Shown here: positions 6,564-44,092 of the stretch, piece by piece | Layout of the letters: each line of letters begins with the position of its first letter | Numbering within the stretch: position 1 is the first letter of the stretch | NCBI GenBank assembly: GCA_964392435.1 | Contig: CAYMOY010000001.1 | Location: forward strand, 77,259 to 141,258 | Direction: 5' to 3' | Origin: Candidatus Micrarchaeota archaeon | Lineage (GTDB): Archaea > Micrarchaeota > Micrarchaeia > Anstonellales > Anstonellaceae | DNA length: 64,000 nucleotides | The notes under the pieces: generated by a model | What the model was told of the DNA's origin: nothing | What the model saw: the letters and a program-made list of their open reading frames with translations, nothing else | The model's database searches: none | Made by a program: the position numbers and the translations under genes

Positions 6564-6564
6564 T

Positions 6565-7800
6565 CTAGCCAGCCTTTATCTTCTTAGCAGCCTCTTCAAG
6601 TTTCAGCATCTCTTCCTTCCCATTCGTAAGATTCCGCAGGGTGACTTTTCCCTCCTTTTTCTCCCGCTCGCCAACCACCACAATCCACTCGCAGCAGCCA
6701 GAAGCGTATTCCATCTGCTTTTTCAGGTTCCTCCTGTTCAGGTCGGTCTGCGCTGCGATGCCTGCGGCTCGAAGCTGTGATGAGACCTGCAGCGCATAGG
6801 GGTAAAACTCGTCTTTTGCAGCGGCAACGAAAACCCCGGTTTTTTCCTGCCCTGCCTTTCCCATCAGGGCAAGCAGCCGCTCTATCCCAAGCGAAATCCC
6901 AACCGCCGCGTCGCCCTGCCCGTACATGGCAAGCAACCCGTCGTATCTTCCTCCGCCTGCGACCGAGCCTATCTCCTCGCTCAGCTTTATCTCGAATATC
7001 GCGCCAGTGTAATAGTCCAGTCCGCGCACAAGGGAAAAGTCCAGCTCGACTTTTATCTTGTCCGAGTACTCCGAAACCAGCACCATGATGTCTGCCAGGT
7101 CCTTGGCGGCCTCGGGGGAATAAGTCATTGCCACCCTCAGCCTGCTCCCGTTATTTCCCGATGCAGTCAACTCGGCTAAGAGCTTTTTAGCCTTGCCTTC
7201 CTCAGCCCCAAGCTCCACGAACATCCTGATGGCAGCTTCATCACCTATTTTCTCCCGCTTGTCCAAAATGCGCAGTATCGCCCCTTCCTTTCCGGGCAAG
7301 AGCTTGGCGGCAATGGCCGAAATTATCCTCCTGTCGTTGATGCGCACTACCCCGCCAGAAAAGCCAAGCTTTTCAAGTGCGGTCCATGCGACTGCGATAA
7401 GCTCAGCCTCTGCCCGCACCGAGGGGCAGCCGATTATGTCCGCGTCAGCCTGGTAAAACTCGCGGAACCGCCCCTTCTGCGGCTCCTCGCGGCGCCAGAC
7501 AGGAGCAACGCAGTACCTTTTGAATGGCTTTTTGAAGGTGTTGGAGGATGCCACGCGCGAAAGCGGGACAGTCAGGTCAAAGCGCAGGGCAAGCCTGCCA
7601 TCATCCACCCTGAAAAGCTGCCCCTTTATCTCCTCGCCGCACTTTTTCTCCAGCACTTCGGCTGTTTCAAGCGCCGGCGTATCCATGGGCGCAAAGCCGA
7701 ACAAGCGGTAAACCGACCGTATCGTTCCTATGGCAAACTCCCGCCGGTTCATTTCATCCGGCAGAAAGTCCCGCATCCCTTTTGGCGCAGAGTAGTCCAT
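6565..7800 (-). CDS. hisS: Histidyl-tRNA synthetase
   Basis: PKGMRDF, LRFDLTVPL, RREEPQKGRFREFYQAD, VRGLDYYTG, GGGRYD. Confidence 0.97.
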   Translation of the reverse strand: MDYSAPKGMRDFLPDEMNRREFAIGTIRSVYRLFGFAPMDTPALETAEVLEKKCGEEIKGQLFRVDDGRLALRFDLTVPLSRVASSNTFKKPFKRYCVAPVWRREEPQKGRFREFYQADADIIGCPSVRAEAELIAVAWTALEKLGFSGGVVRINDRRIISAIAAKLLPGKEGAILRILDKREKIGDEAAIRMFVELGAEEGKAKKLLAELTASGNNGSRLRVAMTYSPEAAKDLADIMVLVSEYSDKIKVELDFSLVRGLDYYTGAIFEIKLSEEIGSVAGGGRYDGLLAMYGQGDAAVGISLGIERLLALMGKAGQEKTGVFVAAAKDEFYPYALQVSSQLRAAGIAAQTDLNRRNLKKQMEYASGCCEWIVVVGEREKKEGKVTLRNLTNGKEEMLKLEEAAKKIKAG

Positions 7801-7947
7801 GCGTTTATGGTGTCCGCTAGGCTATTTATCCTTATCCCCATTTGAGAGGATGCCAGGCTGGAAAAGGCGGGGGCTGGCTGTTGCTTGCATTCACGCTGCA
7901 AATGCTGCGCCCTGCCGGATTAAGGTGCGGGCTTCATCCTATTTTTC

Positions 7948-8259
7948 TCAGCCTTTCATGCTGGAGCCTATCCATTCCCTCAGGTTTTCCTTTGTGATGG
8001 CGCCCACGCGGTTGGCAATCACACGGCCGTCCTTGAAAAGCAGAAGGGTGGGTATGGAGGCGACCTCGAATTTCTCTGACAGCTCTGGCTGCTCGTCAAC
8101 GTTCACCTTGCCGAATCTGACCTCTTTCATCTCAAGCGAAAGAGCGTCCACAACAGGCCCCAGCATCCTGCAAGGGCCGCACCAGGGGGCCCAGAAATCC
8201 ACAAGCGTGACTCCCTTCCCGGTTTCCTTGTCGAAATTTTCTTTTGTCAGCGTAAGCAT
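7948..8259 (-). CDS. trxA: Thioredoxin
   Basis: VDFWAPWCGPC active site, SIPT cis-Pro. Confidence 0.97.
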   Translation of the reverse strand: MLTLTKENFDKETGKGVTLVDFWAPWCGPCRMLGPVVDALSLEMKEVRFGKVNVDEQPELSEKFEVASIPTLLLFKDGRVIANRVGAITKENLREWIGSSMKG

Positions 8260-8330
8260 CCCAACACCTCTCGTTTAGATGATGGCGCAATTAATTAAAA
8301 CCGATTACCCGGGTTTGCGCGCCCAAATGC

Positions 8331-8843
8331 CTATTCCGCCTTTGCCTGCCCGCCCTCCTCCTTGGGTGCTGAGGCCTGGCTGCCGAAATAAGCCTTGAAT
8401 TTTGGGGTGGTGGACAAGCTCTTTGTCCTGCCAGATTTTTTTTGCTGCACAAATCCTTTTTCGACAAGCTCCGCAATATCCTGGTATATTGTGGAGCCCA
8501 GCCGGTCTGCCAAAAGGGACTTCTTTATCCCCTCGCTTTTGGAGATGTAAGCCAGGGTGCGAAGCGCGTGTCGGGATATTTCCCCCTGCTGGGCAAAATC
8601 CTTCACATAATTCACATAGTCCGCGCGCAGCCTCATGTAATATTTGCCCTCCTCCAAGGCTATTTCAATCGCGCTCCCCGCGGAGTCGTATTTCGCCCTA
8701 AGCGCATCCAGCCGCTGTGACACAAAGCCTGGCGCGGCAACGCCAATAAGCTTGCCAAGCTCGGCAACAGACAATGGCTTGCTGCTCATGAAAAGCGCAG
8801 CCTCTATTATTCTTTCCGCCTGGGTCGAATCCATAAAAACCAA
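8331..8843 (-). CDS. scpB: SMC-Scp complex subunit ScpB
   Basis: IEAALFMSSKPLS, ALRTLAYI, TTPKFKAYFG; tandem winged helices. Confidence 0.9.
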   Translation of the reverse strand: MVFMDSTQAERIIEAALFMSSKPLSVAELGKLIGVAAPGFVSQRLDALRAKYDSAGSAIEIALEEGKYYMRLRADYVNYVKDFAQQGEISRHALRTLAYISKSEGIKKSLLADRLGSTIYQDIAELVEKGFVQQKKSGRTKSLSTTPKFKAYFGSQASAPKEEGGQAKAE

Positions 8844-8861
8844 CTCGCATGCTCTTTAATC

Positions 8862-9719
8862 TCACTTCGCCTTTGGCGCAGATTGCAGTTCCCCCTTCAC
8901 CCTGATGAAAATTTCCCCGAAGAACTTCTCCTGGAATATCGAGAGCTTCCTGTCCTGGACCAGGTGCAAAAGCGGCAGCAGTGTTGCGACAACCTGCACA
9001 GGTGTGCCGTCATTGACTATCCTTGAAAAGGTTGCAAGCCCCTCGCTGTCCTTTTCCTGGAGCACCCGTTCGTACACCTCAGCCATCCTCTGCTCTATGT
9101 TGAACTCCGGGAGGTGGATGTTTATCACGGCGGGTATCTCTATCTTCTGCGCCTTTTCTTCCCTTTTTTTCTGCTCATCAAAAACCTTCTCCATGGCAAG
9201 CAGCAGCTCGTCCAGCGTGACCATGCGCTTGGGGGGGATGCGGGTCTTGAGCTCCAGCACCGGTATCACTTCTGGCGAGGCATCCTCCTCCACATATGTT
9301 TCCTCGACCACGACTTGGGTCTCCTCTTCAAAGCGCAGCGCAGAGGCCTTGAACCGAACCAGTATTGCGGCTGCAAGTATCAGATTGGCAGGCACCCGCA
9401 AGTCCAGCATCTCCATCTTGTTTATGCGCTCGATGTAGCTCCCGGTTATCTCCACAATGTCTATGTTCCAGGGGTCCAGCTTCTTGGCCGCAACCAAGTC
9501 CAGCAGCATCTCCCTCCAGGTTGGAAGTGCGACTATCTTCTCCAGCTTCACATCATCGGATGTCATTTTAGAGGTGTCCACGCGTTCTTGCGCATCCGCA
9601 ATGTCCCTTTCCTCAGCCTGTGGCGCCACTGCATTAGCTTTTTTTGCGGGCGCACGTGCAAGTGTTTCATCTTCAGAAAACTCGCTCTCATCACCCTTGT
9701 TGTCCTTGCCATTGCCCAT
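8862..9719 (-). CDS. scpA: Kleisin ScpA
   Basis: LDPWNIDIVEIT, NLILAAAILVRFKA, VTLDELL, TLLPLLHL, QEKFFGEIFI; start refined. Confidence 0.9.
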   Translation of the reverse strand: MGNGKDNKGDESEFSEDETLARAPAKKANAVAPQAEERDIADAQERVDTSKMTSDDVKLEKIVALPTWREMLLDLVAAKKLDPWNIDIVEITGSYIERINKMEMLDLRVPANLILAAAILVRFKASALRFEEETQVVVEETYVEEDASPEVIPVLELKTRIPPKRMVTLDELLLAMEKVFDEQKKREEKAQKIEIPAVINIHLPEFNIEQRMAEVYERVLQEKDSEGLATFSRIVNDGTPVQVVATLLPLLHLVQDRKLSIFQEKFFGEIFIRVKGELQSAPKAK

Positions 9720-9869
9720 GCCGAAAATACTGCGCGCTCCCTTATATTTGTAGTGGGAATTCTGGTCGCAGCCAGTTTTCCCCGCATACAAAGCCCTGCC
9801 CGCCCATCATTGGCGCCACTCCAATAGTCAGGTTAAAAAATCCAAGCGCCGGTAATCAAAGCGGAGATT

Positions 9870-10364
9870 GTGATGGAAAAGAAAAAATCAGTCGACGAAA
9901 TCACAGATGAGGCGATAGGGCAGGGGGGCTGCCTCGCAATGGTGTATTTCGACTTGCATGCCCCGACATCGGAAGAGGTAAAAAATGTCATGGTTGGCTT
10001 CATAAGCAGGCTCACCAAGGAGCCTGGCGTGATATACGCAGTCGGTGAGATAGACCAGCCGGCTGAAAAGGACAACCTTTTCTCCACCTGGGCGCAAGTC
10101 AAACTCCTGGCGCGTGATTTTTCCACCCTTGTCCGAGTGTCTTCGCAATATTCGCCGATAGGGGTGGAGATACTCCGCCCCGATGAGGTGCGCATTTCCC
10201 TTGGCGAAGCGCAGGGGATGATTCTTGATGTTTCGCAGACCAGCCTGAATTTCACCCGCATGATAATGGAACGCGTCCTTTCCAAGGAAGAGGCTGAGCA
10301 GTACAAAAAGAAGATGGAGCAGCGTTCCGAGCTTGGCAGGAAGCTTTTGGAGAAAAAACAGTAG
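9870..10364 (+). CDS. Conserved-looking hypothetical protein
   Basis: 164-aa ORF with normal composition, alpha/beta N-terminal part and C-terminal coiled coil; co-oriented with KaiC-like gene and trpS. Confidence 0.75.
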   Translation: MMEKKKSVDEITDEAIGQGGCLAMVYFDLHAPTSEEVKNVMVGFISRLTKEPGVIYAVGEIDQPAEKDNLFSTWAQVKLLARDFSTLVRVSSQYSPIGVEILRPDEVRISLGEAQGMILDVSQTSLNFTRMIMERVLSKEEAEQYKKKMEQRSELGRKLLEKKQ

Positions 10365-19313: not shown

Positions 19314-19997
19314 ATGTCAATGGCTATAGCTAAAAACATGCCCGTTCCTGCGCAAGAATCTGCGAAGCTCAACATGCGTGTTCTTCAAAATCCGCAGGTG
19401 AGGCGGTTCAACAGGCAGTTCTTTTCCATCTGCAAGCTTGCCGATTTCGAACGGAAAATCGGGGTTGAATCTGGATTTTGGTCCGCGCAGGGCAATGTCA
19501 GCAACTCGTATAAGGTTGATCACAAGTTCTCTGTGCTTGCCAAATCCTCTGCGAATGCGGCATTCGCAGGGCATGGCGTGGGGGCCGGGCCCAACGAGAA
19601 CTTTGTGAAACAGGAGATTCTCGCCATTTCGTTTGATGGCGCCATGAATATCAGCAAGGAAAGCCTGCGCGCCAATACGCTGCGATACATATTCCAGCAT
19701 GGCGCAAAAAGCGCGGTAAATCTTTACCATGGCGGAGAAGATAAGAAAGCAATATTCCTCATAAGCAATCTGCTCCATTTTTTCAAGTCTGAAAAGGAAA
19801 TTCCAGATTATCTTCGGTCCGAGCTTCTGCCGCTTATCAAATCAACATTGGAAAGCGTAACTTTATTTGGGGGCAGGACGCTTCTTGACTTTCTTCCTGG
19901 TCAAGTGCGAGGCATTATGGATGACTTTTCCGGCGCAGCCGCAGGCTCAACAGTCTGGCGCGTGAAGAAAAGGCACCCGGCATTAAAGAATCTCTGA
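19314..19997 (+). CDS. Hypothetical protein
   Basis: 227-aa ORF preceded by GAGGTG SD; no recognised motif. Confidence 0.6.
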   Translation: MSMAIAKNMPVPAQESAKLNMRVLQNPQVRRFNRQFFSICKLADFERKIGVESGFWSAQGNVSNSYKVDHKFSVLAKSSANAAFAGHGVGAGPNENFVKQEILAISFDGAMNISKESLRANTLRYIFQHGAKSAVNLYHGGEDKKAIFLISNLLHFFKSEKEIPDYLRSELLPLIKSTLESVTLFGGRTLLDFLPGQVRGIMDDFSGAAAGSTVWRVKKRHPALKNL

Positions 19998-20007
19998 GCT
20001 TTCACAG

Positions 20008-21174
20008 CTAAAGCGAAAGCAGGATGGAGGGCACGATTATCAGCCCCATCACATGCGTTCTTCTTATCCCGAGCAAAGGGGGCAGCAGCCCTGCGGCGGC
20101 GCAAGTGGAGAAAAGAAGCAGACCAGCCCCTCCAGATATCACTGCGACCGCAAAGACCAGATAGGAGAGTATGCCGATGTTCAGCGCCCTCAAATCAAGG
20201 TTCTGCAGCAGGCTTGCTCGCTTGGAAAGGGCCATCAGCAAAAACGCGCAGACGCCTATTGAAAGCAGAAGGACTCCGATTACAGAGGGCAGGTCGCCAG
20301 GCAGGACAGGCCTTATCCCATTGAGAATGGCAATAGAGCCTTCCCTTGCCTTGCCTATCGAGAGCAGTGCGGCAAATGCGAATACTGTATGCGAGGCGGC
20401 AATCGAGGAGACCAGCGCCAGAAATTTCCGCGGTTCGCGCATAGACAGCACAACAGACGCAAAAACCGCTATTTGCGCAGGAGCCGCGATGCCTGGCAGC
20501 AAATCCGAGAGCATCCCCAGCAGCACGCCTGCCGCAACATAGGGCAGGAAATCCAGCCTTGTTTTTCCGGCAGCCTGCCTCGGCAGCGCCCGGGTGGCTG
20601 TAAATGAGAGCAATATCCCGCTTCCTGCGAAAAGCCCGCAAAAAGCCGGGAACAGGGGGTCGTTTATCGGCCCTCGAAGCGAAGCAATGCCAATTGCCCC
20701 TGAAAGCAGGAAAACAGATGCGGCCACCGCAATCTTTTTCCACTGCCCCTCAGAAGCGAGCAGGAATGAGGACGCCAGCACAAGCACGATTGCCATGTGC
20801 GGCTGCAATATGGAATATGCTGCGGGCAGGAAGTAAAGGGAGACTGGTATGAGCAGGGCAGAGGCAACCGAGGCAATCATCAACGATGAGGCGCAGACCA
20901 GAAGGGCTTCCCGCCCCCTGCCCTCAAGGGCCATCTGGTGCCCGGGCAGAACCGAAACCACTACGTTCTCATCCGGCACAGAAAGGAAAATTGATGGAAA
21001 GAACTGAAAAACCAAGTGCGCGCCAAGCACGGCCACTATAATGTAAAGGAGCATATCTGGCGCGATGGGGAGGGTGGCGACGATGGAGGCGATGGTGTTG
21101 GCATGGACTCCGGGAAGCAGACCTGAAAATATGCCAAGCAGCATTCCTGCGGCTATTGCAAGCGCCTGCAGCAT
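20008..21174 (-). CDS. DUF112 / TctA-like multi-pass membrane permease
   Basis: GIFSGLLPGVHANTI, VVSVLPGH, about 10-11 hydrophobic helices. Confidence 0.85.
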   Translation of the reverse strand: MLQALAIAAGMLLGIFSGLLPGVHANTIASIVATLPIAPDMLLYIIVAVLGAHLVFQFFPSIFLSVPDENVVVSVLPGHQMALEGRGREALLVCASSLMIASVASALLIPVSLYFLPAAYSILQPHMAIVLVLASSFLLASEGQWKKIAVAASVFLLSGAIGIASLRGPINDPLFPAFCGLFAGSGILLSFTATRALPRQAAGKTRLDFLPYVAAGVLLGMLSDLLPGIAAPAQIAVFASVVLSMREPRKFLALVSSIAASHTVFAFAALLSIGKAREGSIAILNGIRPVLPGDLPSVIGVLLLSIGVCAFLLMALSKRASLLQNLDLRALNIGILSYLVFAVAVISGGAGLLLFSTCAAAGLLPPLLGIRRTHVMGLIIVPSILLSL

Positions 21175-21178
21175 GTCT

Positions 21179-21571
21179 TTACCCGGGGGTTATTTCCTCT
21201 GCCTCGATGTACTTGTTCCACTTGTATTCTTTCACCCTTCCAGTCACAATCACCATCTTTCCCTCGTACAGTAGCGCTGAAGCCGGGAGGTCCTTTCCCC
21301 TCACGCTGATGCATATCCGGGTGCGCTGGGCTTTTTCAGCGCCAGCTCCAGAATTTCCCAAGCCAGCTTCAACTTGCTGGCAGAGAAGGAATTTTTCAGA
21401 TGTGACATTGGCGGCTTCCCCGTCAACCTTGACAAGCGTGTTGCTTTGTGCCACGATGGCTTGCGCCACGCTTGCGCTTTGGGGGCTTTCGGAAAGCAGA
21501 AAAAGAGCCAATGTCCCAACTATCGCAAAAGCAGCCGCAGCGATGGTCACATTCCCCTCTTCAAGCCGCAT
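21179..21571 (-). CDS. Membrane-anchored OB-fold protein
   Basis: N-terminal TM helix, LVKVDGE, GKMVIVTGRVKEYK...IEAEEI; start refined. Confidence 0.7.
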   Translation of the reverse strand: MRLEEGNVTIAAAAFAIVGTLALFLLSESPQSASVAQAIVAQSNTLVKVDGEAANVTSEKFLLCQQVEAGLGNSGAGAEKAQRTRICISVRGKDLPASALLYEGKMVIVTGRVKEYKWNKYIEAEEITPG

Positions 21572-21617
21572 AAGCATGATGTATACACTTAAAAATCGGA
21601 AGATTAAAACGCCTATC

Positions 21618-22880
21618 ATGTCACTGCTGATAAAAGGCGCCACATTGCTTTCCGGGAAAAAGTCAGACGTGCTTGTGGCTGGGGGGAAGATTGCGAAAAT
21701 CGCGCCCTTTATTGCTGCAAGGGCGGATGAAAAGCTGGATGCCTCGGGGAAGCTTTTGCTGCCAGGATTTGTCAACACCCACACGCATGCCGCAATGACC
21801 CTTTTCCGCGGCTCTGCCCAGGACATGTCTTTGGGGAAATGGCTCGCCACTGTGCGCAAAGAAGAGGAAAAAGTGACCCCCTCCCAAATCCGGGCAGGCT
21901 CCTTGCTTGCCTGTTCCGAAATGCTCAGAAGCGGCACCACCAGCTTCAACGACATGTATTTCCATATGGATGAGGTTGCGCACGCTGTGGCGCAGACAGG
22001 CATCCGCGCAACTTTGGGGTACAGCATGGTTGATATGGGGGTTGGCGCCAAGCGCAAGTCCGAGCTTTCAATCTGCGAGAAATTCGTCAAAGACTGGCAT
22101 GGGAAGGCAGGGGGCAGGATAAGATGCGCAATCCCCCCGCATTCCATCTACCTATGCTCAAAAGAGCTTCTGCAAAAGTCAGATGAGCTTTCTAAGAAAT
22201 ATTCCATTCCGCTGCACATCCACCTCTCAGAAACACGCAAGGAGGTTTTTGACTGCCTGCAAGAGCACAAGAAGCGCCCCGCCTATTACCTGGACTCGCT
22301 TGGCGCGCTCTCTTCGCGCATGGTTGCGGCGCACTGCGTCTGGCTCACAAAAGAAGAAGTGCGTCTCCTCGCCTCGCGCGGCGTTTCAGCCTCTCTCAAC
22401 CCGGTTTCCAACATGAAGCTGTCTGGCGGCGGGGCGGCACCCATGCCCGAAATGCAGGAGTTTTCCATGAATATTTCCCTTGGCACGGACGGCTCGGCTT
22501 CCAACAACTCGCTTTCAATGTTCGAGACAATGAAGACTCTCGGCCTGCTGCAGAAAAATTCGCGCTGGGACCCGTCTGTGGCAACGGACAGGGCAATATT
22601 TGAGGCAGCGACAGTTGGAGGCGCGAAGGCTCTTGGCATAGGTGCCGGAAGGATTGCGCAAGGCGCGTTGGCAGACATTATCCTTCTCGACTTGCGCTCT
22701 GCCAACATGGCGCCGGCCCACTCACTTGTGGCAAATGTGGTCTACTCCGCGCATGCAGGAAACGTGACTGACGTAATCGTGGACGGGAAGCTGGTTGTGG
22801 AAAACCGGAAGCTGCTAACTGTTGATGAGGGTAAAATAGCAGACTTTGCCCAAAGGGAAGCGGAAAAGATAGCTGGGTGA
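21618..22880 (+). CDS. mtaD: Amidohydrolase, MTA/SAH deaminase-like
   Basis: PGFVNTHTHAAM, HIHLSET, AAHCVWL, LGTDGSASNN; start refined. Confidence 0.85.
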   Translation: MSLLIKGATLLSGKKSDVLVAGGKIAKIAPFIAARADEKLDASGKLLLPGFVNTHTHAAMTLFRGSAQDMSLGKWLATVRKEEEKVTPSQIRAGSLLACSEMLRSGTTSFNDMYFHMDEVAHAVAQTGIRATLGYSMVDMGVGAKRKSELSICEKFVKDWHGKAGGRIRCAIPPHSIYLCSKELLQKSDELSKKYSIPLHIHLSETRKEVFDCLQEHKKRPAYYLDSLGALSSRMVAAHCVWLTKEEVRLLASRGVSASLNPVSNMKLSGGGAAPMPEMQEFSMNISLGTDGSASNNSLSMFETMKTLGLLQKNSRWDPSVATDRAIFEAATVGGAKALGIGAGRIAQGALADIILLDLRSANMAPAHSLVANVVYSAHAGNVTDVIVDGKLVVENRKLLTVDEGKIADFAQREAEKIAG

Positions 22881-22908: not shown

Positions 22909-23877
22909 TTATTTTTTCCCATGCCTTATTATTATCCTCGTGCTGGCATGCGGCACTCCAGCTCCGAATTTCTTTACCACCTCGGTTGCGAGCATGCCGC
23001 CTATTTTTCCGGATGAAACAGGGGAATAGCCCCTGCTAAGCCCGTAAAGAACTCCGGCAGCGTATGCGTCTCCTGCGCCAGTGGTGTCCAGCACCTTTGC
23101 CGAAAGAGCAGGTATTCCTGTTTTCTTTCCCCTGTGGAACAGGGCAGAGCCTTTTCTTCCCATCTTCAGGAAAACAAGCGCCGCTGGCTTGAAGGCAGCC
23201 AGTTTCGCCTCCGCATTCCTTCCGAGAAGCGCAGCTGCTTCCTCCTCGTTCATGAATAGAATATCCGCGTATTTTTTGGCAATCAAGAGAAGCCTGGCGC
23301 GGTTTTTCTCCACCATGGGCGGGCTTTCAAGCGAGATGGCCACGCGCTTATGTTCTTTTTTGGCAAGCTGCAGGTATTTTTCGGCAAGCTTTGCGGTGGC
23401 ACAGGGCACCCCCAGGGTTATGGAGGTCAGAAAAAGCATCCTTGCGCTTCCAAAAGCAAGTTTTTCTAGAAGGGTGCATTCCCCCGACACTCCCAAATCG
23501 GCGCAAAAGGTCCTCTGCCCATCTGGGGTCACAAGCGCCAGTATTTTTCCAGTCTTGCCTTTTTTTTGCTGAAGGAATGCCGCCACCCCGCATTTGGCGA
23601 GATTGGAGGCGAATTCCGCCGCTGCCCTGTCGCGGCCAGTCGCCCCGCAGTATCCGCAAAAGCCGCCAAGGGCCGCAAACCCCTCGCACACATTGCGCGC
23701 GTTGTCTCCGGGGTAGCGATAAGCTATGTTTTTCGACAAGCTGCGCTCCATCTTGGCAAGCTGCAAGGCGCTTACATAGCTGGTCGCTCCTTTCTGAACT
23801 TTCAATTCTGCAAGCTTCTTTTGAGAAACCCGGGCAAACAGGTCGATGGCGGGCGTGCCCAATGCAAAAAGCTCCAT
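22909..23877 (-). CDS. PfkB-family sugar/nucleoside kinase
   Basis: ILFMNEEEA, DTTGAGDAYAAG; start refined. Confidence 0.9.
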   Translation of the reverse strand: MELFALGTPAIDLFARVSQKKLAELKVQKGATSYVSALQLAKMERSLSKNIAYRYPGDNARNVCEGFAALGGFCGYCGATGRDRAAAEFASNLAKCGVAAFLQQKKGKTGKILALVTPDGQRTFCADLGVSGECTLLEKLAFGSARMLFLTSITLGVPCATAKLAEKYLQLAKKEHKRVAISLESPPMVEKNRARLLLIAKKYADILFMNEEEAAALLGRNAEAKLAAFKPAALVFLKMGRKGSALFHRGKKTGIPALSAKVLDTTGAGDAYAAGVLYGLSRGYSPVSSGKIGGMLATEVVKKFGAGVPHASTRIIIRHGKK

Positions 23878-23975
23878 GCAATGGATTGCGGGATATAGCA
23901 TTTTAAACAATCCCGCAGCATTCACAGTCGTGGGGCAGACTGCCCTATAGCTCTTGCTTGGAAGGGGGTTTTCAT

Positions 23976-25490
23976 ATGGTGGAACAAAAGAAGCGTCCTG
24001 CTGCCCGAGACGGCACAATCGACTCTTATGTCTATGACAATGAAGGCATACAGGTGCTTGCAAAAATCACTGCCAAGAGCGGCGATTACGTCCCCTTATA
24101 CGAGGTCAACGTCCGCGAGCTTTCCGAGGGCACGCGTTTGGTCCTAAACCAGCTCAAAGGGGAACTTATCACCACGGTCAAGCTGGACATAACCGATATA
24201 ATGGACCCGAAAAAGCGCGATGATGTGCGCAAGAAATTCGAGGTCCGAGCCAATTTCCTTCTGGGCAAGCATTTTCCCACGCTTTCAGAAGCTGACAAGA
24301 AGGTGCTCACCGCATACCTGCTGCAGAATTCTCTTGGCTTAGGCGAGATAGAATCCTTGATGCATGACAATAATCTTGAGGAGGTGGCCATCAATTCCGC
24401 CTCAGAGCCGATTTGGGTCTACCACAAGAAGCACGGCTGGTGCAAAACCAACATACAGCTCAAAAGCGAGGAATCCATATATGACATATCCGCCATGATA
24501 GGCAGGAGGATAGGCAAGCAGATAAACGTTCTCAATCCGGTCATGGATGCGCACCTTGCAACCGGCGACCGTGTCAACGCCACGCTGTATCCGGTCTCTT
24601 CCTTTGGCAACACAATAACCATCAGAAAATTCTCCCGCAACCCCTGGACAATACCCTATCTTATCGAGCTCAACTGTATCTCTTCGCAGGTTGCCGGCCT
24701 CATTTGGCTTTGCATGCAAAACGAGATGTCGCTTTTGGTCTCAGGAGGCACAGGCTCCGGAAAAACATCGTTCCTCAACGCAATGGCGTGCCTCATTCCG
24801 CCCAACCAGCGCGTGATTTCCATAGAGGACACCCGGGAGCTGACCCTGCCCAACTTCCTGCAATGGGTGCCCATGGTCACCCGCGAGCCGAACGCCGAGG
24901 GCAAGGGCGAGATAACCATGCTTGACCTGCTGGTCAATTCTCTGCGCATGAGGCCCGACCGGATAATATTGGGTGAGGTGCGCAAGCAGCGCGAGGCGGA
25001 AATACTCTTCGAGGCGATGCACACCGGGCATTCGGTTTATGCCACGCTGCACGCTGACAATGCGGCGGAGACAATCACCAGGCTGACCACCCCGCCCATT
25101 TCCATGCCGCGAGAGACACTCTCTGCGCTGGCTGGCATTGTAGTCCAGTTCAGGCACCGCAGGCTCAATGTGCGCCGCACTCTTGAATTTGCAGAGGTGC
25201 AAAAAGGAGGGGACATAAACACCCTTTATCGCTGGGATGTGAAAAGCGACAGGATAAACGAGGTCGGAAAGATGATCACACTGTCCCAAACGCTTTCACT
25301 TTACTCCGGCCTGACCCAAAAGGAAATAGACCAGGATGTTTCTGACAAGGCTAAGATATTTTCCTGGATGGTCAAGCGCGGCTTGAAAAGCGTGGACACC
25401 GTTGGCACCATAGTTTCCCAATACTATGTCAACCCGGATGACATACTTTCCCTGGCTACCAAAAATGCAGAATGGCATGGCCAGGAATGA
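23976..25490 (+). CDS. Type IV pilus assembly ATPase (TadA/VirB11 family)
   Basis: GGTGSGKT, SIEDTREL, LRMRPDRIILGEVR, TGHSVYATLHA. Confidence 0.95.
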   Translation: MVEQKKRPAARDGTIDSYVYDNEGIQVLAKITAKSGDYVPLYEVNVRELSEGTRLVLNQLKGELITTVKLDITDIMDPKKRDDVRKKFEVRANFLLGKHFPTLSEADKKVLTAYLLQNSLGLGEIESLMHDNNLEEVAINSASEPIWVYHKKHGWCKTNIQLKSEESIYDISAMIGRRIGKQINVLNPVMDAHLATGDRVNATLYPVSSFGNTITIRKFSRNPWTIPYLIELNCISSQVAGLIWLCMQNEMSLLVSGGTGSGKTSFLNAMACLIPPNQRVISIEDTRELTLPNFLQWVPMVTREPNAEGKGEITMLDLLVNSLRMRPDRIILGEVRKQREAEILFEAMHTGHSVYATLHADNAAETITRLTTPPISMPRETLSALAGIVVQFRHRRLNVRRTLEFAEVQKGGDINTLYRWDVKSDRINEVGKMITLSQTLSLYSGLTQKEIDQDVSDKAKIFSWMVKRGLKSVDTVGTIVSQYYVNPDDILSLATKNAEWHGQE

Positions 25491-25565
25491 GCCGGGCCTT
25501 AAGATGCGCATTGGCATCAGGGAAGGGCAGGCGTTTGCCTTTGCCCCTCAGCCGGATGCTATCGC

Positions 25566-28500
25566 GTGAAGGAGAATATTCGCATGGCGGCCAATGACAT
25601 TTTCCCCAGTTTCGTCGAATGCAGCCGGCAGGCTCGTGAAATCGAGCGCAAACTGCTGCCAGTCAAGCCTTCGCAGATTTCAGGCAAGCTCCGCCCGGAA
25701 GGCTCCACACAGATATTTCCCCGCGAGTTTGAGGAATACACCGTTGCTTACCTTGTTTCCGAGGCGCAAAAAGTAGAGCGCAAGCTTTTCGCCGCCAATT
25801 ACCAATCGGCTCCAAATGTCTCCGTGGCGCAAGCTTCTTCCAAGGTTGAGCTTGGGCAGAAAGTGGCAGATGAGCTGGGCCAGTTTGCCTCAGGGGCAGC
25901 CCAACAGCCTGGCTATCAAACCACGCCCAAGGTGCCAGGCATTCCCGCCAAAAAAGATGCTATCTGGGGCGGGGCAGGTGCTCAGGCTCAGCCAGAGGGG
26001 CCATCCTCGGGGGATGAAAAAATTTCCCCGCCAGCATTGCCATACCAGCAGGGCATTCCATCCGAGGTCCGCATTGCCAAGGAAGCCGAACTTGAGGCCG
26101 AGGCGAAGATGGCAAACGAGTCCGCCCATCACCCTGCGCAATTTGGGGGATATGGAAGCGGCGAGCCTGGCGATGCTTCGCGCAAGCTGCGCTTACAGGA
26201 CCAGCCCTCCTCGTCCGGTCTGATGTCCTCTTCAAAGCTTTCTCCAAGGCTCAGGGCTATAATCGAGGAGAAGCTGAGGAAAGAGGAACAAGCCGCCCAG
26301 GATGCGCCAGTGGAAATAGAAAAAGCATCTTATGAAAAAGAGGAGCAAGAAGAAAAGAATGAAGAGCCTCCCGTGCTCTCCTCGCGAGAGAGGCTGTTGC
26401 GGAAATTGCAGCGCGAAAGGCAGATTAGGGAGGGCGAGGCTCTGCTTCAAGGGCAGGAAAGGCAGCCTGCAAAAGTGCTTCCAAGAAAACTGCAAGAGCC
26501 TGCCGCTGGAGATGAAGAACTGCCTGAGCAAGAAGAGCAGGGGCAGCAGCCAGAGCAAGAGGGGCGGGAAGACTTGCAAAGGCCCCCTGAGGATGAGGAG
26601 GAGATTCAGGAGCAGGAAAGGCAGCCTGCCAGAGTGCTTCCAAGAAAACTGCAAGAGCCTGCCGCTGGAGATGAAGAACTGCCTGAGCAAGAAGAGCAGG
26701 GGCAGCAGCCAGAGCAAGAGGGGCGGGAAAACCAGCAAGAAGAGCAGGAGGTTTCAGGGCAGGCAGAAGGGGCGGAAGAAGAAACCCCCTCGCAAGTGGA
26801 GCAGCCGCTCGAGGTTGCCTCTGCAAAGGCAAGTGCCCCTGCCAAAAGCTCTATTTTGCAAAAGCAGCCTTTGGCATATGGGCAGGTGGCGCAAAAGGGC
26901 GCGTCCGCGCTCCCACCATCATCCCTAAGTTCTGGCAGAATACTCATAAAGCCCATTTTTGCCGGGCAGGAAAACGAGCAGGATGAAAACCAGGGGGCGC
27001 GGGACGATGGGGCGGAAAAAAGGATGGAGCGCATCTCACGCATAGTGCGGGAGCTGTCCCCGGACAGGTACAAGGCGCAGGCAATAGCGAAAAAACCAGA
27101 CGCCTCATCCGAAAAAGGCGATGCAAAGCCTGGCGAACCAGCTGCGCCTTTGCGGATGGAAAAGCGGCCAACCGCAAAACCGGTCCTGAAGAAAAAAGCC
27201 AAAATTCAAGTGAATGAGCAGCAGCCTTGGGAAGAGGCGCAAGAAGAACAGCAGGAGCCCCCATCAGATGCGGAAGGGCCGCAGGGGCAGGAAAACCCGC
27301 AAGAGGAGGCGCAGGAAGAGTCCGAGGTACGGCAAAGGCTCGGCTGGAACCAGCCTCAAGCGAAAAAAAAGCTGGCGCCAAAAGTTTCTGGGAAAAGACA
27401 GGGCGAATTGGCTAATGCGAAGAGAAAGAATTTGCCTGCTGGGGCGCAACAGCAGAAGAAGGCGGGAAAAGCGCAAAAGTCTTTGCCTGCGGCAAAGGAG
27501 CCTTCTGGGGGGAAAATAAGGTCCCAAGACCAGGGCGGTTTCCCTAAGAAGCAGCAGGTGGCTTTGCAAAAGCAGTCAAAATCGCCCCAAACCGCCCGGG
27601 CAAGGCAAGCGGCATCGCCCTCCAAAGAAGTTTTCCAATCCAAATCCCCTCCAATGCAATCAGCAAAGCGGCAGCTGCCACAGCCCCAAAAATCCGTGGC
27701 ATACGCACAACGCGGCACTCCTGTTCAATATCAGGATGAAAGACGCCCTGCCGCATCTTCGAGCCAACCATTGCCGTCCCGCCAAGTTGCGCCTGCTGCA
27801 AACAAGCCTCCAACCGTTTCTCGACCAAGCGTGGCTGCAAGTGCGCGACCAGTTTCACGGCTCTCGCCATATTCCGCGCCGCCTGCCAGGCCTGCCTCCG
27901 GTCCCTCCCTGGGGCGGCCCATCATGCGCCAGGTCCAAGCTCCAACAGCCTATCGCACTTCTCCCCAGCCAATTCCAAGGGCAGGATCCAGGCCGCGCAT
28001 TCTTCCGGGGGGTGCGCAACAGATGGCGCCACAGACATATCTGCCTCCAAGAAGAACGATAATCCGGCCGCAAGCTTTGGGGCAAGAATCTTTGGCTGTG
28101 GGGCAGCCAGAAGAGGATTCGCAACCTATGCGGGAAACTGGCGGATTGCCAAAAAGGCGCGCAGCATATCCGCAGCCTGGCAGTGGCGAGGCTCTGCTTC
28201 AAGGGCAGGAAAGGCAGCCTGCCAGAGTGCTTCCAAGAAAACTGCAAGAGCCTGCCGCTGGAGATGAAGAACTGCCTGAGCAAGAAGAGCAGGGGCAGCA
28301 GCCAGAGCAAGAGGGGCGGGAAAACCAGCAAGAAGAGCAGGAGGTTTCAGGGCAGGCAGAAGGGGCGGAAGAAGAAACCCCCTCGCAAGTGGAGCAGCCG
28401 CTCGAGGTTGCCTCTGCAAAGGCAAGGCTCAGCGCCATATCGCAGGTTTCGGGTCTCAAGCCCAGGAAAAACGTGCTTGACGAGCCGGTGCAAAAGACGC

Positions 28501-28967
28501 CTGAGCAGCTTGAGGAAGAAAAGCGCATTTCTCAAAAAGCGCAGGTGCTCTCGCAGATGGAGGGGCAAAAGCAGCACGAGATATCAGGTTCAGCTTCCCT
28601 TCCTTTGGAAGAGGAAGACTTGGAAGTGCCAAAGCCGCCGCCAGATGATTCCGAATCCGGGCAGCCGGATTACGATACTGCAAAATACGGGCTGCGGCGC
28701 AAGATGCAAGAGGATGACATCCGGGCGAAGACCAAGGAGGAGGTTGAGGCGATAATGGAGGGCTATGCAAAAGATAATCTTGTATGGCTCTATGAAATTT
28801 ATTCCATGGGCGGGATGCCCCGCGAGGACTTCCTGCAAAAAGTAAAGGAGAAAATGGCCGAGGAAAAAATCGCCCTGCCGCAAGTTGGGGGTGAGGAGCC
28901 ACCTCCGCCTTCCAATCCCGCCCTTGCTAATTTGGGCAAGGAAATAGACAAGAGATATAAAAAGTAG
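25566..28967 (+). CDS. Giant low-complexity Q/E/P/A-rich protein with internal repeats inside the pilus operon
   Basis: 1133-aa uninterrupted ORF; short folded-looking termini; start may be ATG at 25584. Confidence 0.8.
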   Translation: MKENIRMAANDIFPSFVECSRQAREIERKLLPVKPSQISGKLRPEGSTQIFPREFEEYTVAYLVSEAQKVERKLFAANYQSAPNVSVAQASSKVELGQKVADELGQFASGAAQQPGYQTTPKVPGIPAKKDAIWGGAGAQAQPEGPSSGDEKISPPALPYQQGIPSEVRIAKEAELEAEAKMANESAHHPAQFGGYGSGEPGDASRKLRLQDQPSSSGLMSSSKLSPRLRAIIEEKLRKEEQAAQDAPVEIEKASYEKEEQEEKNEEPPVLSSRERLLRKLQRERQIREGEALLQGQERQPAKVLPRKLQEPAAGDEELPEQEEQGQQPEQEGREDLQRPPEDEEEIQEQERQPARVLPRKLQEPAAGDEELPEQEEQGQQPEQEGRENQQEEQEVSGQAEGAEEETPSQVEQPLEVASAKASAPAKSSILQKQPLAYGQVAQKGASALPPSSLSSGRILIKPIFAGQENEQDENQGARDDGAEKRMERISRIVRELSPDRYKAQAIAKKPDASSEKGDAKPGEPAAPLRMEKRPTAKPVLKKKAKIQVNEQQPWEEAQEEQQEPPSDAEGPQGQENPQEEAQEESEVRQRLGWNQPQAKKKLAPKVSGKRQGELANAKRKNLPAGAQQQKKAGKAQKSLPAAKEPSGGKIRSQDQGGFPKKQQVALQKQSKSPQTARARQAASPSKEVFQSKSPPMQSAKRQLPQPQKSVAYAQRGTPVQYQDERRPAASSSQPLPSRQVAPAANKPPTVSRPSVAASARPVSRLSPYSAPPARPASGPSLGRPIMRQVQAPTAYRTSPQPIPRAGSRPRILPGGAQQMAPQTYLPPRRTIIRPQALGQESLAVGQPEEDSQPMRETGGLPKRRAAYPQPGSGEALLQGQERQPARVLPRKLQEPAAGDEELPEQEEQGQQPEQEGRENQQEEQEVSGQAEGAEEETPSQVEQPLEVASAKARLSAISQVSGLKPRKNVLDEPVQKTPEQLEEEKRISQKAQVLSQMEGQKQHEISGSASLPLEEEDLEVPKPPPDDSESGQPDYDTAKYGLRRKMQEDDIRAKTKEEVEAIMEGYAKDNLVWLYEIYSMGGMPREDFLQKVKEKMAEEKIALPQVGGEEPPPPSNPALANLGKEIDKRYKK
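26433..26570 (+). repeat. Intragenic repeat copy 1 (138 bp)
   Basis: Near-identical to 28185-28322; encodes GEALLQGQERQPAKVLPRKLQEPAAGDEELPEQEEQGQQPEQEGRE. Confidence 0.9.
26612..26833 (+). repeat. Intragenic repeat copy 2 (222 bp)
   Basis: Appears identical to 28205-28426 by manual comparison. Confidence 0.9.
28185..28426 (+). repeat. Intragenic repeat copy 3 (242 bp)
   Basis: 5' end matches copy 1; the remainder matches copy 2. Confidence 0.9.
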
Positions 28968-28995
28968 TGCCTAACAATTAATATAGAGGGAATGC

Positions 28996-29931
28996 ATGGC
29001 TGAAAACAAGGCAGGTCTGGCAAACGCTTCAAATTCAAAATCAAAGGTCTCCCAGCCGCTTATCACCCAGCCAATGAGGGATGTGGAAGGGCCGCAGGAC
29101 CCCTCCCAATTCAGGAATCTCATGCGTTCGCTGGCATCCCATTTTCCTGACTTGCGCAAGGACCTGGTGCGCGCAGACATGCAGTATACGCCAGCCGGGT
29201 TTGTCCAGTCCGCCCTCATAAATGCAATAACAATAGCCCTGGTCCTGCTCGTAATCGCCTATCTTTTCCTGCGCGGGCAGGAAATGGCGCCATTTCTGAT
29301 ACTGCTTCTTGCCCCAGTGTTTCTTTTCCTGGCTTTCTTCTACGCGATGTATTTTCCGAAGGCAAGGGCCCGCATGAGGGCAAAGCGCATGGAACAGGAG
29401 CTGGTGTTTGCGGGAAGGCACATGCTAATCGAGCTCAAAAGCGGAGTGCCCCTGTTCGACGCTATGCTGGGCATCTCTCAGGACTACGGCGAAATATCTG
29501 TGGAGTTCAACAAGATTGTGGAAAAAGTGACGCTGGGCGTTCCGCTTGGCGTGGCGCTGCACGAGGTTGCGGAGACCAACCCCTCCCAGTACTTCAAGCG
29601 GGTCATCCTCCAGGTGGCGAACTCGCTTGCATCAGGCTCGGATGTCGCAGCCGCCCTGGAAGCCGCGCTGGACCAGATTTCGCGCGAACAGGCAATAGAG
29701 CTTAAGGCATACGGGCAGAAGCTCAACCCCATTGTGATGTTCTTCATGATATTCGGGATAATCCTCCCTTCGCTTGGCATAGCATTCCTGATAATACTGG
29801 TGTCCTTCCTGGGCTCATCAGTCTCATTCGGCCCAACCGCGCTTTTCGGAGTGCTGCTTGCCATCGGGCTGGTGCAATTCATCTTCCTGACAATGGTTGA
29901 GGGTTCCAGGCCGAAGTTCGATATAGTATGA
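28996..29931 (+). CDS. Type II/IV secretion F-family (TadB/C) platform protein
   Basis: HMLIELKSGVPLF, EFNKIV...LGVPLGVAL, ELKAYGQKLNP, TM helices. Confidence 0.88.
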   Translation: MAENKAGLANASNSKSKVSQPLITQPMRDVEGPQDPSQFRNLMRSLASHFPDLRKDLVRADMQYTPAGFVQSALINAITIALVLLVIAYLFLRGQEMAPFLILLLAPVFLFLAFFYAMYFPKARARMRAKRMEQELVFAGRHMLIELKSGVPLFDAMLGISQDYGEISVEFNKIVEKVTLGVPLGVALHEVAETNPSQYFKRVILQVANSLASGSDVAAALEAALDQISREQAIELKAYGQKLNPIVMFFMIFGIILPSLGIAFLIILVSFLGSSVSFGPTALFGVLLAIGLVQFIFLTMVEGSRPKFDIV

Positions 29932-29940
29932 TGTGGTTCG

Positions 29941-31011
29941 ATGTCCAACGTTCTTTATGAAATGATCGGGCGGCTCTTCTCGCGCAGCCAGATGCGCAAG
30001 CTGGGGTTATTGCTTGAAACTTCCGGCATAAATTTCGTGCCAGAGGCATTCGCAGGCTTCATAGTGATACTTTCAGTTGTCCTATCCATTTTTACCTATC
30101 TGCTGCTCTCATCCATCTCAACCACCCGCAGTTTCATGTTCAGGCTTTCCTCAATGCTCTCGCCAGGCCTGACGCTCCAGTCGCCTGACTTTTTCCTCAT
30201 CGTTTCAGTTATTTTCTCAGTCCTGATTGCGACAGGATCGCTGCTGCTGGTTGTTTATGTCTGGCTGATGCTGCGGGCGGACAGCAGGCGCAGGAATGTT
30301 GAGGAGGTGCTGCCGGACTTCCTATCGCTTTCCGCAGCCAACGTTCGGGCGGGAATGACAATCGACCAGGCGATGTGGTATGCCGCAAAGCCCGAGTTTG
30401 GCATACTCTCGGTTGAAGTTGCTACGGTGGCGAAAAAGACATTCGGCGGGGTTCCGTTCAACCAGGCTGTCGACTACCTGACTGACAGGTTCAATTCCAA
30501 GTCAATCCGCAGGTCCGTGGCCCTCATCAAGCAGGGCATGGCATCCGGCGGGCAGCTTGCAGACATACTTGAGAGGACTGCGGAGGATGCCAGGCAGATG
30601 CATGTGCTCCAAAAGGAGATAGCCGCTTCGCTTCTGATGTATGTGATATTCATCGTCTTCGCAGGCGCCCTCGGCACCCCATTCCTATTTGCCATCTCCG
30701 GCAAGCTGGTGGGCATGCTGGAAAACGTGTTTGCCACGCTGCCAACCGACACTTCATCGTTTGCCGGCTCAATGCAGACACCCCTAATATCCGCGAGCCG
30801 CTCAGCAATCTCATCATCCGACTTTTTCCTCTTCACCATACTCTCATGCATAATGACCGCGATTTTTTCCGCTCTGATAATAGGGGTGATTTCCAAGGGG
30901 AGCAAAAGGGACGGCGTGCCTTACTTGCCATTCCTCCTGGTTGCTTCTCTGGCGATTTTCTTAATTGTCAGCGCCCTTCTGGACAGTTTCCTCTCCAATA
31001 TTTATGTATGA
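29941..31011 (+). CDS. Type II/IV secretion F-family (TadB/C) platform protein
   Basis: LPDFLSLSAANVRAGMT, GGQLADILERTAED, TM helices. Confidence 0.88.
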   Translation: MSNVLYEMIGRLFSRSQMRKLGLLLETSGINFVPEAFAGFIVILSVVLSIFTYLLLSSISTTRSFMFRLSSMLSPGLTLQSPDFFLIVSVIFSVLIATGSLLLVVYVWLMLRADSRRRNVEEVLPDFLSLSAANVRAGMTIDQAMWYAAKPEFGILSVEVATVAKKTFGGVPFNQAVDYLTDRFNSKSIRRSVALIKQGMASGGQLADILERTAEDARQMHVLQKEIAASLLMYVIFIVFAGALGTPFLFAISGKLVGMLENVFATLPTDTSSFAGSMQTPLISASRSAISSSDFFLFTILSCIMTAIFSALIIGVISKGSKRDGVPYLPFLLVASLAIFLIVSALLDSFLSNIYV

Positions 31012-31039
31012 ACTGATGGTAATCATTGAGGTGGTTGAT

Positions 31040-31537
31040 GTGTTGAACGGAAAAAAGAAAGGCCAGGCGGCAATGGAATACCTGATGACCTACGGCTGGG
31101 CTCTCCTGGTCATCGTAGTGGTCATCGCAATACTGCTCATCATAAATCCGCTTCAGCCTCCAGCAGGATGCCGTTTTGACACAATCGGCTTCACCTGCAG
31201 CGACCCGCTGGTTGCATCAAATGGAATGCTTTATCTGAAAATGACCAATGGCAACAGCAACAACATAGAAATCTATGGGCTGAAGTGCACAACTGACAAA
31301 TCGCCCAAGCCGCCAGTGCTCTCTGGTTCAGAAACCCTGGTAAAGAGGCTGCAGAGGCAGGAGCCCTACGAGTTCAACATAACCTGCACTGCCCCTGGCG
31401 TCGGGACAATCAGCCCGCAGCCCGGCTCGGACTTCTCAGGCAAGCTCTGGATATTCTACAAAAACGAGGAGGACGGTGCTGGCTATCCAATGCGCTCCAT
31501 AAGTGCGAATGTGGCCTCCAAGGTTGTTGCCTCCTAA
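31040..31537 (+). CDS. Archaeal type IV pilin (class III signal peptide)
   Basis: KKKG^QAAMEYLMTYGWALLVIVVVIAILL; GAGGTG SD upstream of GTG; start refined. Confidence 0.88.
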   Translation: MLNGKKKGQAAMEYLMTYGWALLVIVVVIAILLIINPLQPPAGCRFDTIGFTCSDPLVASNGMLYLKMTNGNSNNIEIYGLKCTTDKSPKPPVLSGSETLVKRLQRQEPYEFNITCTAPGVGTISPQPGSDFSGKLWIFYKNEEDGAGYPMRSISANVASKVVAS

Positions 31538-43888: not shown

Positions 43889-44092
43889 AGGAAAGGCTTC
43901 GGGTGCTAAGGCTATAAAGGCATGCGGCTTTGGCAAAAAGGGCTCGCATCTGAATTTGGGAAAATGCTCGCACATCATATGCCCTGCCCATCAGGCCGTA
44001 TCGCCCTGCTGCGCTTTCCCGCATGGCTTATCGGCGCAGATGGCATGCCCCCATAGGTTAAGCTCTTAAAAGTTAGCGCCCAATTCCATCAG

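Follow-up and report, generated by a model that had tools for sequence, protein, structure and literature searches.

A conserved gene pair of Micrarchaeota encoding a membrane-anchored OB-fold protein and a TctA-like permease, a candidate module for nucleic-acid import

How archaea take up nucleic acids is the question raised by two genes at positions 20008-21571 of a 64,000-nucleotide stretch of contig CAYMOY010000001.1 from a Candidatus Micrarchaeota archaeon (assembly GCA_964392435.1), which is called the window below. One of them encodes a small OB-fold protein with a single transmembrane (TM) helix, the other a multi-pass permease of the TctA family. To our knowledge, archaea are devoid of ComEC, and the OB/TctA-like gene pair of Methanococcus is the only genetic lead on DNA import in these organisms. 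An initial annotation of the window had tentatively taken the two genes, together with that of a ComEC-type MBL lipoprotein located 38 kb away, for a DNA or nucleotide import system in the manner of a ComEC-like channel split into separate parts. The idea of an import system could be retained for the OB/TctA-like pair, for which it is the best reading by analogy with a methanogen, but not for the MBL lipoprotein, and the derivation from ComEC fails on homology, as detailed below.

The gene pair and its counterpart in methanogens

The evidence that carries this reading comes from methanogens. In Methanococcus maripaludis, a single-TM OB protein (MMJJ_13020) and an 11-TM TctA-like protein (MMJJ_13030) are encoded by adjacent genes that are both essential for natural transformation; in-frame deletion of either gene abolishes transformation, and both deletions were complemented in trans (Fonseca et al. 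2023, PMC10133366). Deletion of the gene for the TctA-like protein SAMN04488571_104187 of Methanoculleus thermophilus also abolishes transformation, although complementation was not possible in this species and it has no clear OB homologue (PMC10133366). MMJJ_13030 was proposed to be possibly the archaeal DNA transporter, and a member from Methanothermobacter marburgensis (Methanobacteriaceae) was placed in its TctA-like family (PMC10133366). Because the same architecture is essential for transformation in M. maripaludis, DNA or nucleotide import is the best-supported reading of the window pair and is likely. We lean towards the view that Micrarchaeota have, in this pair, their own form of the archaeal OB/TctA-like transformation module, which would serve to take in nucleic acid caught by pili, probably with salvage as its purpose. 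We infer that the genes are orthologous to those of Methanococcus (from the shared architecture, the shared family and the link through Methanobacteriaceae), that the substrate is a nucleic acid, that the pilus cooperates with the pair and that there is a connection with salvage.

The two systems have in common the two-gene architecture and the adjacency of the genes, the Pfam family of the permease, the lack of TctB and TctC, and the presence of type IV-like pili in the organism. However, the Methanococcus pair belongs to a euryarchaeal methanogen and has a phenotype, whereas that of Micrarchaeota, a DPANN lineage, is known from its genes alone. The latter is also tied to a nucleoside deaminase gene, lies 2.4 kb from a pilus operon, and is likely to be used for scavenging rather than for genetic transformation. 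This kind of module has been known since 2023 (Fonseca et al.), and the Micrarchaeota pair is a further member, so that the locus extends the sole genetic lead on archaeal DNA import to the DPANN archaea. What is new is the observation that the pair is kept throughout the sampled Micrarchaeota and in several other archaeal phyla, along with the recurrence of the deaminase gene as its divergent neighbour in Micrarchaeota and the predicted outward orientation of the OB domain. In the literature searched, no paper was found to link TctA-like proteins to DPANN; a text containing both 'TctA' and 'DPANN' had matched by a primer sequence only.

Both genes are located on the minus strand, with the OB-fold protein gene (21179-21571, 130 aa, stop codon TAA) upstream of the permease gene (20008-21174, 388 aa; PF01970, formerly DUF112). 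The stop codon of the former and the ATG of the latter, at 21174, are separated by 4 nt (AGAC), and the two genes would be co-transcribed. The arrangement read by the initial annotation, a TM-anchored OB gene 4 nt before a DUF112 permease gene, thus agrees with the coordinates, the PF01970 match, the structural model of the OB protein and the Foldseek results. An alternative in-frame ATG at 21577 would extend the OB protein to 132 aa, the length of its database copy P0003. Between this gene and the divergent deaminase gene lies a spacer of 40 nt (21578-21617), which, as read from the sequence, contains two A/T-rich boxes, GTTTTAAT and TTTTTAAG, with a distance of about 25-30 nt between each box and one or the other start codon. 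This layout suggests a putative back-to-back promoter for leaderless transcripts. On the other side of the pair, an open reading frame (ORF) without family match (19314-19997, plus strand) is convergent with the TctA-like gene; ORFs of 174-177 aa, also without matches, occupy the equivalent position in two other loci (L001:2127-2651 and L003:6171-6704).

Fold and topology of the two proteins

The window OB protein taken alone gave a sub-threshold match to the nucleic-acid-binding OB family PF01336 (tRNA_anti-codon; E = 0.11, 12.9 bits). Its orthologues and relatives matched the same family with E-values from 1.2e-5 (the L005 orthologue) to 3.5e-12, and one of them, from L065, reached 46.5 bits for a gathering cut-off of 27. 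An AlphaFold model built with the family alignment A1, which comprises 11 OB orthologues, had a pLDDT of 88 and consists of a TM helix (residues 5-26) followed by strands beta1-beta3, a short helix and strands beta4-beta5, that is, a five-stranded barrel in the classic OB order. When compared to the PDB using Foldseek, this model matched Ten1, RPA14, RPA32, YgiW, the anticodon domain of LysRS, PriB and SSB, with E-values between 9e-6 and 8e-4 (1.9e-4 for YgiW, one of the top matches). A PDB sequence profile search with the OB family gave weak matches to RPA32 and YgiW. The OB assignment is confirmed by the PF01336 scores of the orthologues, the AlphaFold model and the OB-fold proteins found by Foldseek.

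The hydrophobic N-terminal helix and residues C64, C87 and G111 are invariant in A1. In the model, the two cysteines sit on neighbouring strands and could therefore form a disulfide, by which the ectodomain is probably stabilised. The loop between them contains, in the window copy, a Gly/Ala-rich insert of 21 residues, QVEAGLGNSGAGAEKAQRTRI (residues 66-86, positions 21301-21363), which reaches such a length in no other of the 11 aligned sequences and is modelled with a pLDDT of about 60. Among the 122 OB family members with a clear TM helix, an excess of lysine and arginine precedes the helix in 87 and the opposite is seen in 13, and 82 have at least two cysteines in the ectodomain. Given this charge bias and the ectodomain cysteines, the protein is predicted to have a type-II topology, with a short cytoplasmic N-terminus and an ectodomain of about 100 aa carrying the OB fold on the outer face, which is the orientation that an uptake role as proposed by the initial annotation would call for.

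At E <= 1e-3, the OB family profile detected 636 of 1.84 billion representative proteins, and the majority of these 636 are single-TM proteins of 105-145 aa. The profile also reached giant tandem-OB proteins with up to 11 repeats and bacterial BOF/YdeI proteins, one BOF protein matching with an E-value of about 1e-10. The BOF family (YgiW/YdeI, PF04076) resembles the window protein in being a small extracytoplasmic OB fold; as far as we know, however, its members carry a signal peptide that is cleaved upon secretion, and do not occur in pairs with TctA-like genes. DUF4131 (PF13567), which covers the N-terminal TM and OB part of ComEC, was matched faintly by the L005 orthologue (E = 0.02) and by the BOF protein P0175 (E = 0.056), and was not matched by the window protein. 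The giant proteins include P0135 (1352 aa), P0136 (1417 aa) and P0142 (1891 aa), which have 6-11 tandem copies of the OB domain; P0135 matched PF01336 with an E-value of 1.8e-29. A distant TM+OB protein, P0245, was considered as a member of a pair and rejected, as no TctA-like gene lies beside it.

The permease matched Pfam TctA over its full length (PF01970, profile positions 2-422 of 423; E = 1.9e-33, 116.2 bits for a cut-off of 28.9). It thus belongs to the TctA family (COG1784/arCOG04469), and PF01970 was its sole family match, the ComEC competence domain PF03772 not being matched. Its AlphaFold model (pLDDT 86.9, pTM 0.87) shows about 11 long helices. Homology between the two halves of the protein was detected by hhalign (probability 91%, E = 1e-6); both begin with a G-x-LPG-(V/I) motif, and R277 and R372 are invariant in the permease alignment A2. 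From end to end, the protein has 31% identity to a TctA-like protein from Methanobacteriaceae (E = 9e-47). No significant match of the model was found in the PDB using Foldseek (best E = 0.018, TM-score 0.23), and no ComEC chain was among the 50 matches listed, although full-length ComEC chains are present in the PDB sequence set; a PDB profile search with the TctA alignment gave nothing meaningful. Both the family assignment and the structural comparison argue against homology of the permease to the membrane channel of ComEC.

Full-length membership of PF01970 and the two homologous halves are shared with the permease of the bacterial TctABC systems (TTT family, TCDB 2.A.80). Bacterial TctA has about 500 aa. 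It has up to 12 helices (PMC10133366), whereas the window permease is limited to 388 aa and about 11 helices, has a single-TM OB protein as its partner, and is found outside any carboxylate context. Moreover, no match to the families of TctB, a small subunit with 4 TM helices, or of TctC, a periplasmic binding protein, was found among the about 45 ORFs scanned in the window, and none was listed in the Micrarchaeota loci, which upholds the remark of the initial annotation that the window offers no such partner.

Occurrence of the pair in archaea

Relatives of the permease in Micrarchaeota comprise dozens of metagenomic proteins with 65-74% identity. A TM+OB gene coding for 111-142 aa was found upstream of the permease gene in all seven Micrarchaeota loci examined, in which permease identity decreases from 74% to 36%. 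The pair is also present on an eighth Micrarchaeota contig (L002), where the permease gene runs off the contig end. Each of the Micrarchaeota loci codes for one OB domain, and a gene for a third, YdjM/DUF457-like partner was looked for beside the pair and not found. In L008, which comes from a metagenome-assembled genome (MAG) labelled Parvarchaeota, a gene for a ParE-type toxin (a weak Pfam match) and an ORF of 81 aa, possibly that of its antitoxin, are inserted between the two genes (L008:2436-3023), and the OB and TctA-like genes have both remained intact despite this insertion.

A wider scan, using an Aenigmatarchaeota-type query and one genome per species, returned 80 further loci, mostly from DPANN archaea. 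To these were added the seven loci from Micrarchaeota and an Aenigmatarchaeota-type locus found earlier, and three loci with too little upstream sequence were subtracted, which left 85. OB partners were sought in ORFs of up to 200 aa with a hidden Markov model (HMM) of the small OB partners. An iterative expansion of the OB HMM was abandoned, as it strayed to the OB domain of DP1, the small subunit of PolD, and picked up unrelated proteins of 310 aa, the latter of which are avoided by the restricted model. Of the 85 loci, 23 have a TM+OB gene immediately upstream of the TctA-like gene, and 27 have one within 3 kb of it. An adjacent TM+OB gene was present in five of seven loci from Woesearchaeota, both loci from Altiarchaeota (with two OB genes each), both from Hydrothermarchaeota, the single locus from Pacearchaeota, three of 27 from Aenigmatarchaeota and the single locus from a MAG labelled Methanosarcinales. 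None of the four Methanobacteriaceae loci had one, the upstream gene being that of EF-1beta. The spacing of 4 nt, or an overlap of the two genes, recurs in phyla that share no other synteny. The view that the OB and TctA-like genes form a conserved operon-like pair is thus borne out by all seven Micrarchaeota loci and by several other archaeal phyla.

The remaining 58 loci, which have no OB gene within 3 kb, leave room for another explanation, namely that the adjacency is no more than inherited gene order in a small genome and that the OB protein acts independently, for instance as a surface stress or adhesion protein. This would also be in keeping with L010, in which a related TM+OB gene adjoins that of an unrelated protein of 426 aa. 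However, it does not account for a tight spacing that recurs across phyla in the absence of other shared synteny, nor for the identical null phenotype of the two M. maripaludis genes (PMC10133366), and we regard it as improbable.

Neighbouring genes and the nature of the substrate

The neighbours named by the initial annotation, a deaminase, a PfkB kinase and a pilus operon, were all confirmed by Pfam or NCBIfam matches. The gene divergent from the pair (21618-22880, plus strand) codes for an MtaD/DadD-type amidohydrolase of the nucleoside deaminase family (Pfam Amidohydro_1, E = 8e-69; NCBIfam PRK06038, E = 2.4e-139, and 5'-deoxyadenosine deaminase, E = 6e-99). Wherever the upstream gene could be identified in Micrarchaeota, which was the case in six loci (L003-L008), this gene is the one divergent from the pair, a synteny that may reflect a functional link between deaminase and pair; among the 80 loci from other phyla it was never found in this place. 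Convergent with it is the gene of a PfkB-family kinase (22909-23898, minus strand; Pfam PfkB, E = 1.5e-40), which resembles ribose-1-phosphate or nucleoside kinases according to weak NCBIfam matches and is found close to the pair in L004 and L005 as well.

A type IV filament operon (23958-31537, plus strand) starts 2.4 kb from the pair. It comprises the genes of a T2SSE ATPase (23958-25490; Pfam T2SSE, E = 5e-39), a low-complexity protein of 1133 aa (25566-28967) and two T2SSF/TadC-like platform proteins (28996-31011; Pfam T2SSF, E = 1.7e-17 and 1.2e-13), followed by a pilin-like ORF (30965-31537), all on the plus strand. The same T2SSE ATPase gene adjoins the pair in L004. In three Methanobacteriaceae loci (L079, L086 and L088, around positions 6200-10300), a distance of 1-3 kb separates the TctA-like gene from the genes of a PilB3-like T2SSE ATPase and a T2SSF protein. 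This co-localisation is independent of that in Micrarchaeota and comes without an adjacent OB gene; ATPase and platform genes of type IV filaments are thus found near the TctA-like gene in two distant lineages, one represented by the window and L004 and the other by Methanobacteriaceae. The operon is a candidate partner machine for DNA capture. No carboxylate-metabolism genes were found near the pair.

Several points weigh against the reading of the pair as a nucleic-acid import module. Elsewhere, TctA proteins are known as secondary carboxylate transporters, and the architecture of the permease, with its two repeats and LPG motifs, looks more like that of an ion-coupled small-molecule carrier than like a wide pore. 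Most of the OB ectodomains are acidic or neutral, the median isoelectric point (pI) being 5.0 in the family; the window copy has a pI of 6.6 and a net charge of 0. Ten1 and RPA14, the best structural matches of the OB model, are mainly protein-protein interaction subunits, and for the BOF/YdeI proteins reached by the OB profile we know of no nucleic-acid ligand. The TctA-like gene occurs without an OB gene within 3 kb in the 58 loci mentioned above, those of Methanobacteriaceae included. Synteny with the deaminase gene is restricted to Micrarchaeota, and simple inheritance of gene order could explain it. No Methanococcus locus was among the 80 returned by the scan, and a profile search with 15 OB partners gave no match bearing the name of Methanococcus. 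Finally, the evidence from methanogens (PMC10133366) is genetic only, and the part played by the TctA-like protein in transformation could be indirect.

If that role is indirect, the TctA-like protein might be an ordinary ion-coupled carrier whose substrate is small and anionic (a carboxylate, nucleoside, nucleobase or nucleotide, for example), and the OB protein an extracytoplasmic accessory, or a subunit that captures the substrate, in replacement of TctC and TctB. The full-length PF01970 match, the homologous halves, the LPG motifs and the invariant arginines are as expected of anion carriers, and arCOG04469 was predicted to consist of probable stand-alone carboxylate transporters (Makarova et al. 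2015, PMC5898192). The charge of the ectodomains, the relationship with periplasmic BOF proteins and the protein-interaction role of the closest structural matches would suit an accessory subunit, and the deaminase neighbour and the nearby PfkB kinase would suit the import of nucleosides. Against such a carrier stand the complemented deletions of M. maripaludis, in which the loss of either gene abolishes transformation, and the agreement of a second genus as to the TctA-like gene (PMC10133366). The OB fold is moreover of the nucleic-acid-binding PF01336 type, the TctA-like gene lies beside type IV filament genes in two distant lineages, and carboxylate-metabolism genes are missing from the surroundings. 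We consider a small-solute carrier to be the main alternative, though the less likely of the two readings.

Under the preferred reading, that of nucleic-acid import, extracellular DNA would be drawn to the surface of the cell by the type IV pili encoded 2.4 kb away. On the outer face of the membrane, the OB ectodomain would receive the nucleic acid or a fragment of it, or position it at the TctA-like protein, and the latter may translocate it or be required in some other way for its entry into the cytoplasm. In a DPANN archaeon, whose genome is reduced, what is imported would be used mainly for nucleotide salvage, a use with which the deaminase and the PfkB kinase are compatible. If the function carries over from the methanogens, it would explain how ultra-small cells poor in biosynthetic pathways are supplied with nucleotides, and biochemists would have a compact system of two genes (130 and 388 aa) to reconstitute. 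A broader proposal, that the OB/TctA-like module rather than ComEC is the general route by which nucleic acid from the environment or from a host crosses the membrane of DPANN archaea, and that it is wired to salvage in Micrarchaeota by a divergent promoter shared with the deaminase gene, is put forward tentatively and has in our opinion a minor chance of being correct. If true, the module would be the archaeal counterpart of the system made of ComEC and type IV pili that is used by bacteria of the Candidate Phyla Radiation (CPR), and a second, evolutionarily independent solution to DNA translocation, derived from a secondary-transporter fold.

The third part of the system envisaged by the initial annotation, the ComEC-type MBL-fold lipoprotein, is encoded on the minus strand at 59750-60829. 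Its N-terminus has a lipobox-like signal (LFAGC) followed by a stalk with six N-x-S/T sequons, and its closest solved relatives are the MBL domains of ComEC proteins (PDB 9ic4_A, E = 9.4e-15; 30bt_A, residues 535-789, E = 6.9e-12); it also matched positions 442-663 of TIGR00361 (E = 6e-10). The fold and the lipoprotein character ascribed to it were thus supported, but its metal motif is degenerate. In the residue alignment, the sequence T-H-P-D-A-D-H of ComEC faces T-R-D-S-P-V-A, so that R155-D-S-P-V-A160 takes the place of the ComEC motif H-x-D-x-D-H. The aspartate of the ComEC sequence S-A-D-I-E (D700) faces P262, and the equivalent of H725 (H288) is the only ligand retained. In the ComEC domain of Moorella glycerini, which has the motif H598-x-D600-x-D602-H603, nuclease activity is abolished by each of the substitutions H598A, D602A, H603A and D700A (PMC12455585). 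The window protein thus lacks four of the five metal ligands that were mutated in tests of the ComEC nuclease domain, and because of this degenerate motif no two-metal nuclease activity is expected.

The same degenerate motif (ATRD or ATKD) was found in four metagenomic relatives (L091-L094, 41-64% identical), whose genes all stand in the order glnA-MBL-smc seen in the window, with no OB or TctA-like gene nearby. The lipoprotein is a conserved, MBL-fold surface protein that is probably unable to work as a two-metal nuclease, and it is probably no part of the OB/TctA-like module; a pseudo-enzyme at the surface or a protein that binds DNA are possible identities for it. The tempting assumption that it supplies a nuclease to the import system is thereby removed.

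An outward OB fold beside a polytopic membrane protein is a layout analogous to that of ComEC/Rec2, and the genome also codes for a ComEC-MBL-like domain; an outer OB domain, a membrane protein and an MBL domain together mirror ComEC (PMC12455585). The similarity of the lipoprotein to ComEC MBL domains and the faint DUF4131 matches of OB relatives could accordingly be taken to mean that the OB protein, the DUF112 permease and the lipoprotein are disassembled homologues of the three domains of ComEC. However, the parts are separate genes, the membrane part is a PF01970 permease not homologous to the competence domain and without significant PDB match, and the MBL domain has lost its metal ligands, a loss conserved in its relatives, and is encoded 38 kb away in a fixed context of its own. 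A split ComEC is for these reasons hardly credible. The window also contains genes for a RecJ- or nanoRNase-like DHH/DHHA1 phosphoesterase (38387-39394, plus strand), a canonical beta-CASP MBL RNase (42650-43978, minus strand) and an ERCC4-HhH2 nuclease (52622-53287, plus strand), all of which appear to be cytoplasmic housekeeping proteins.

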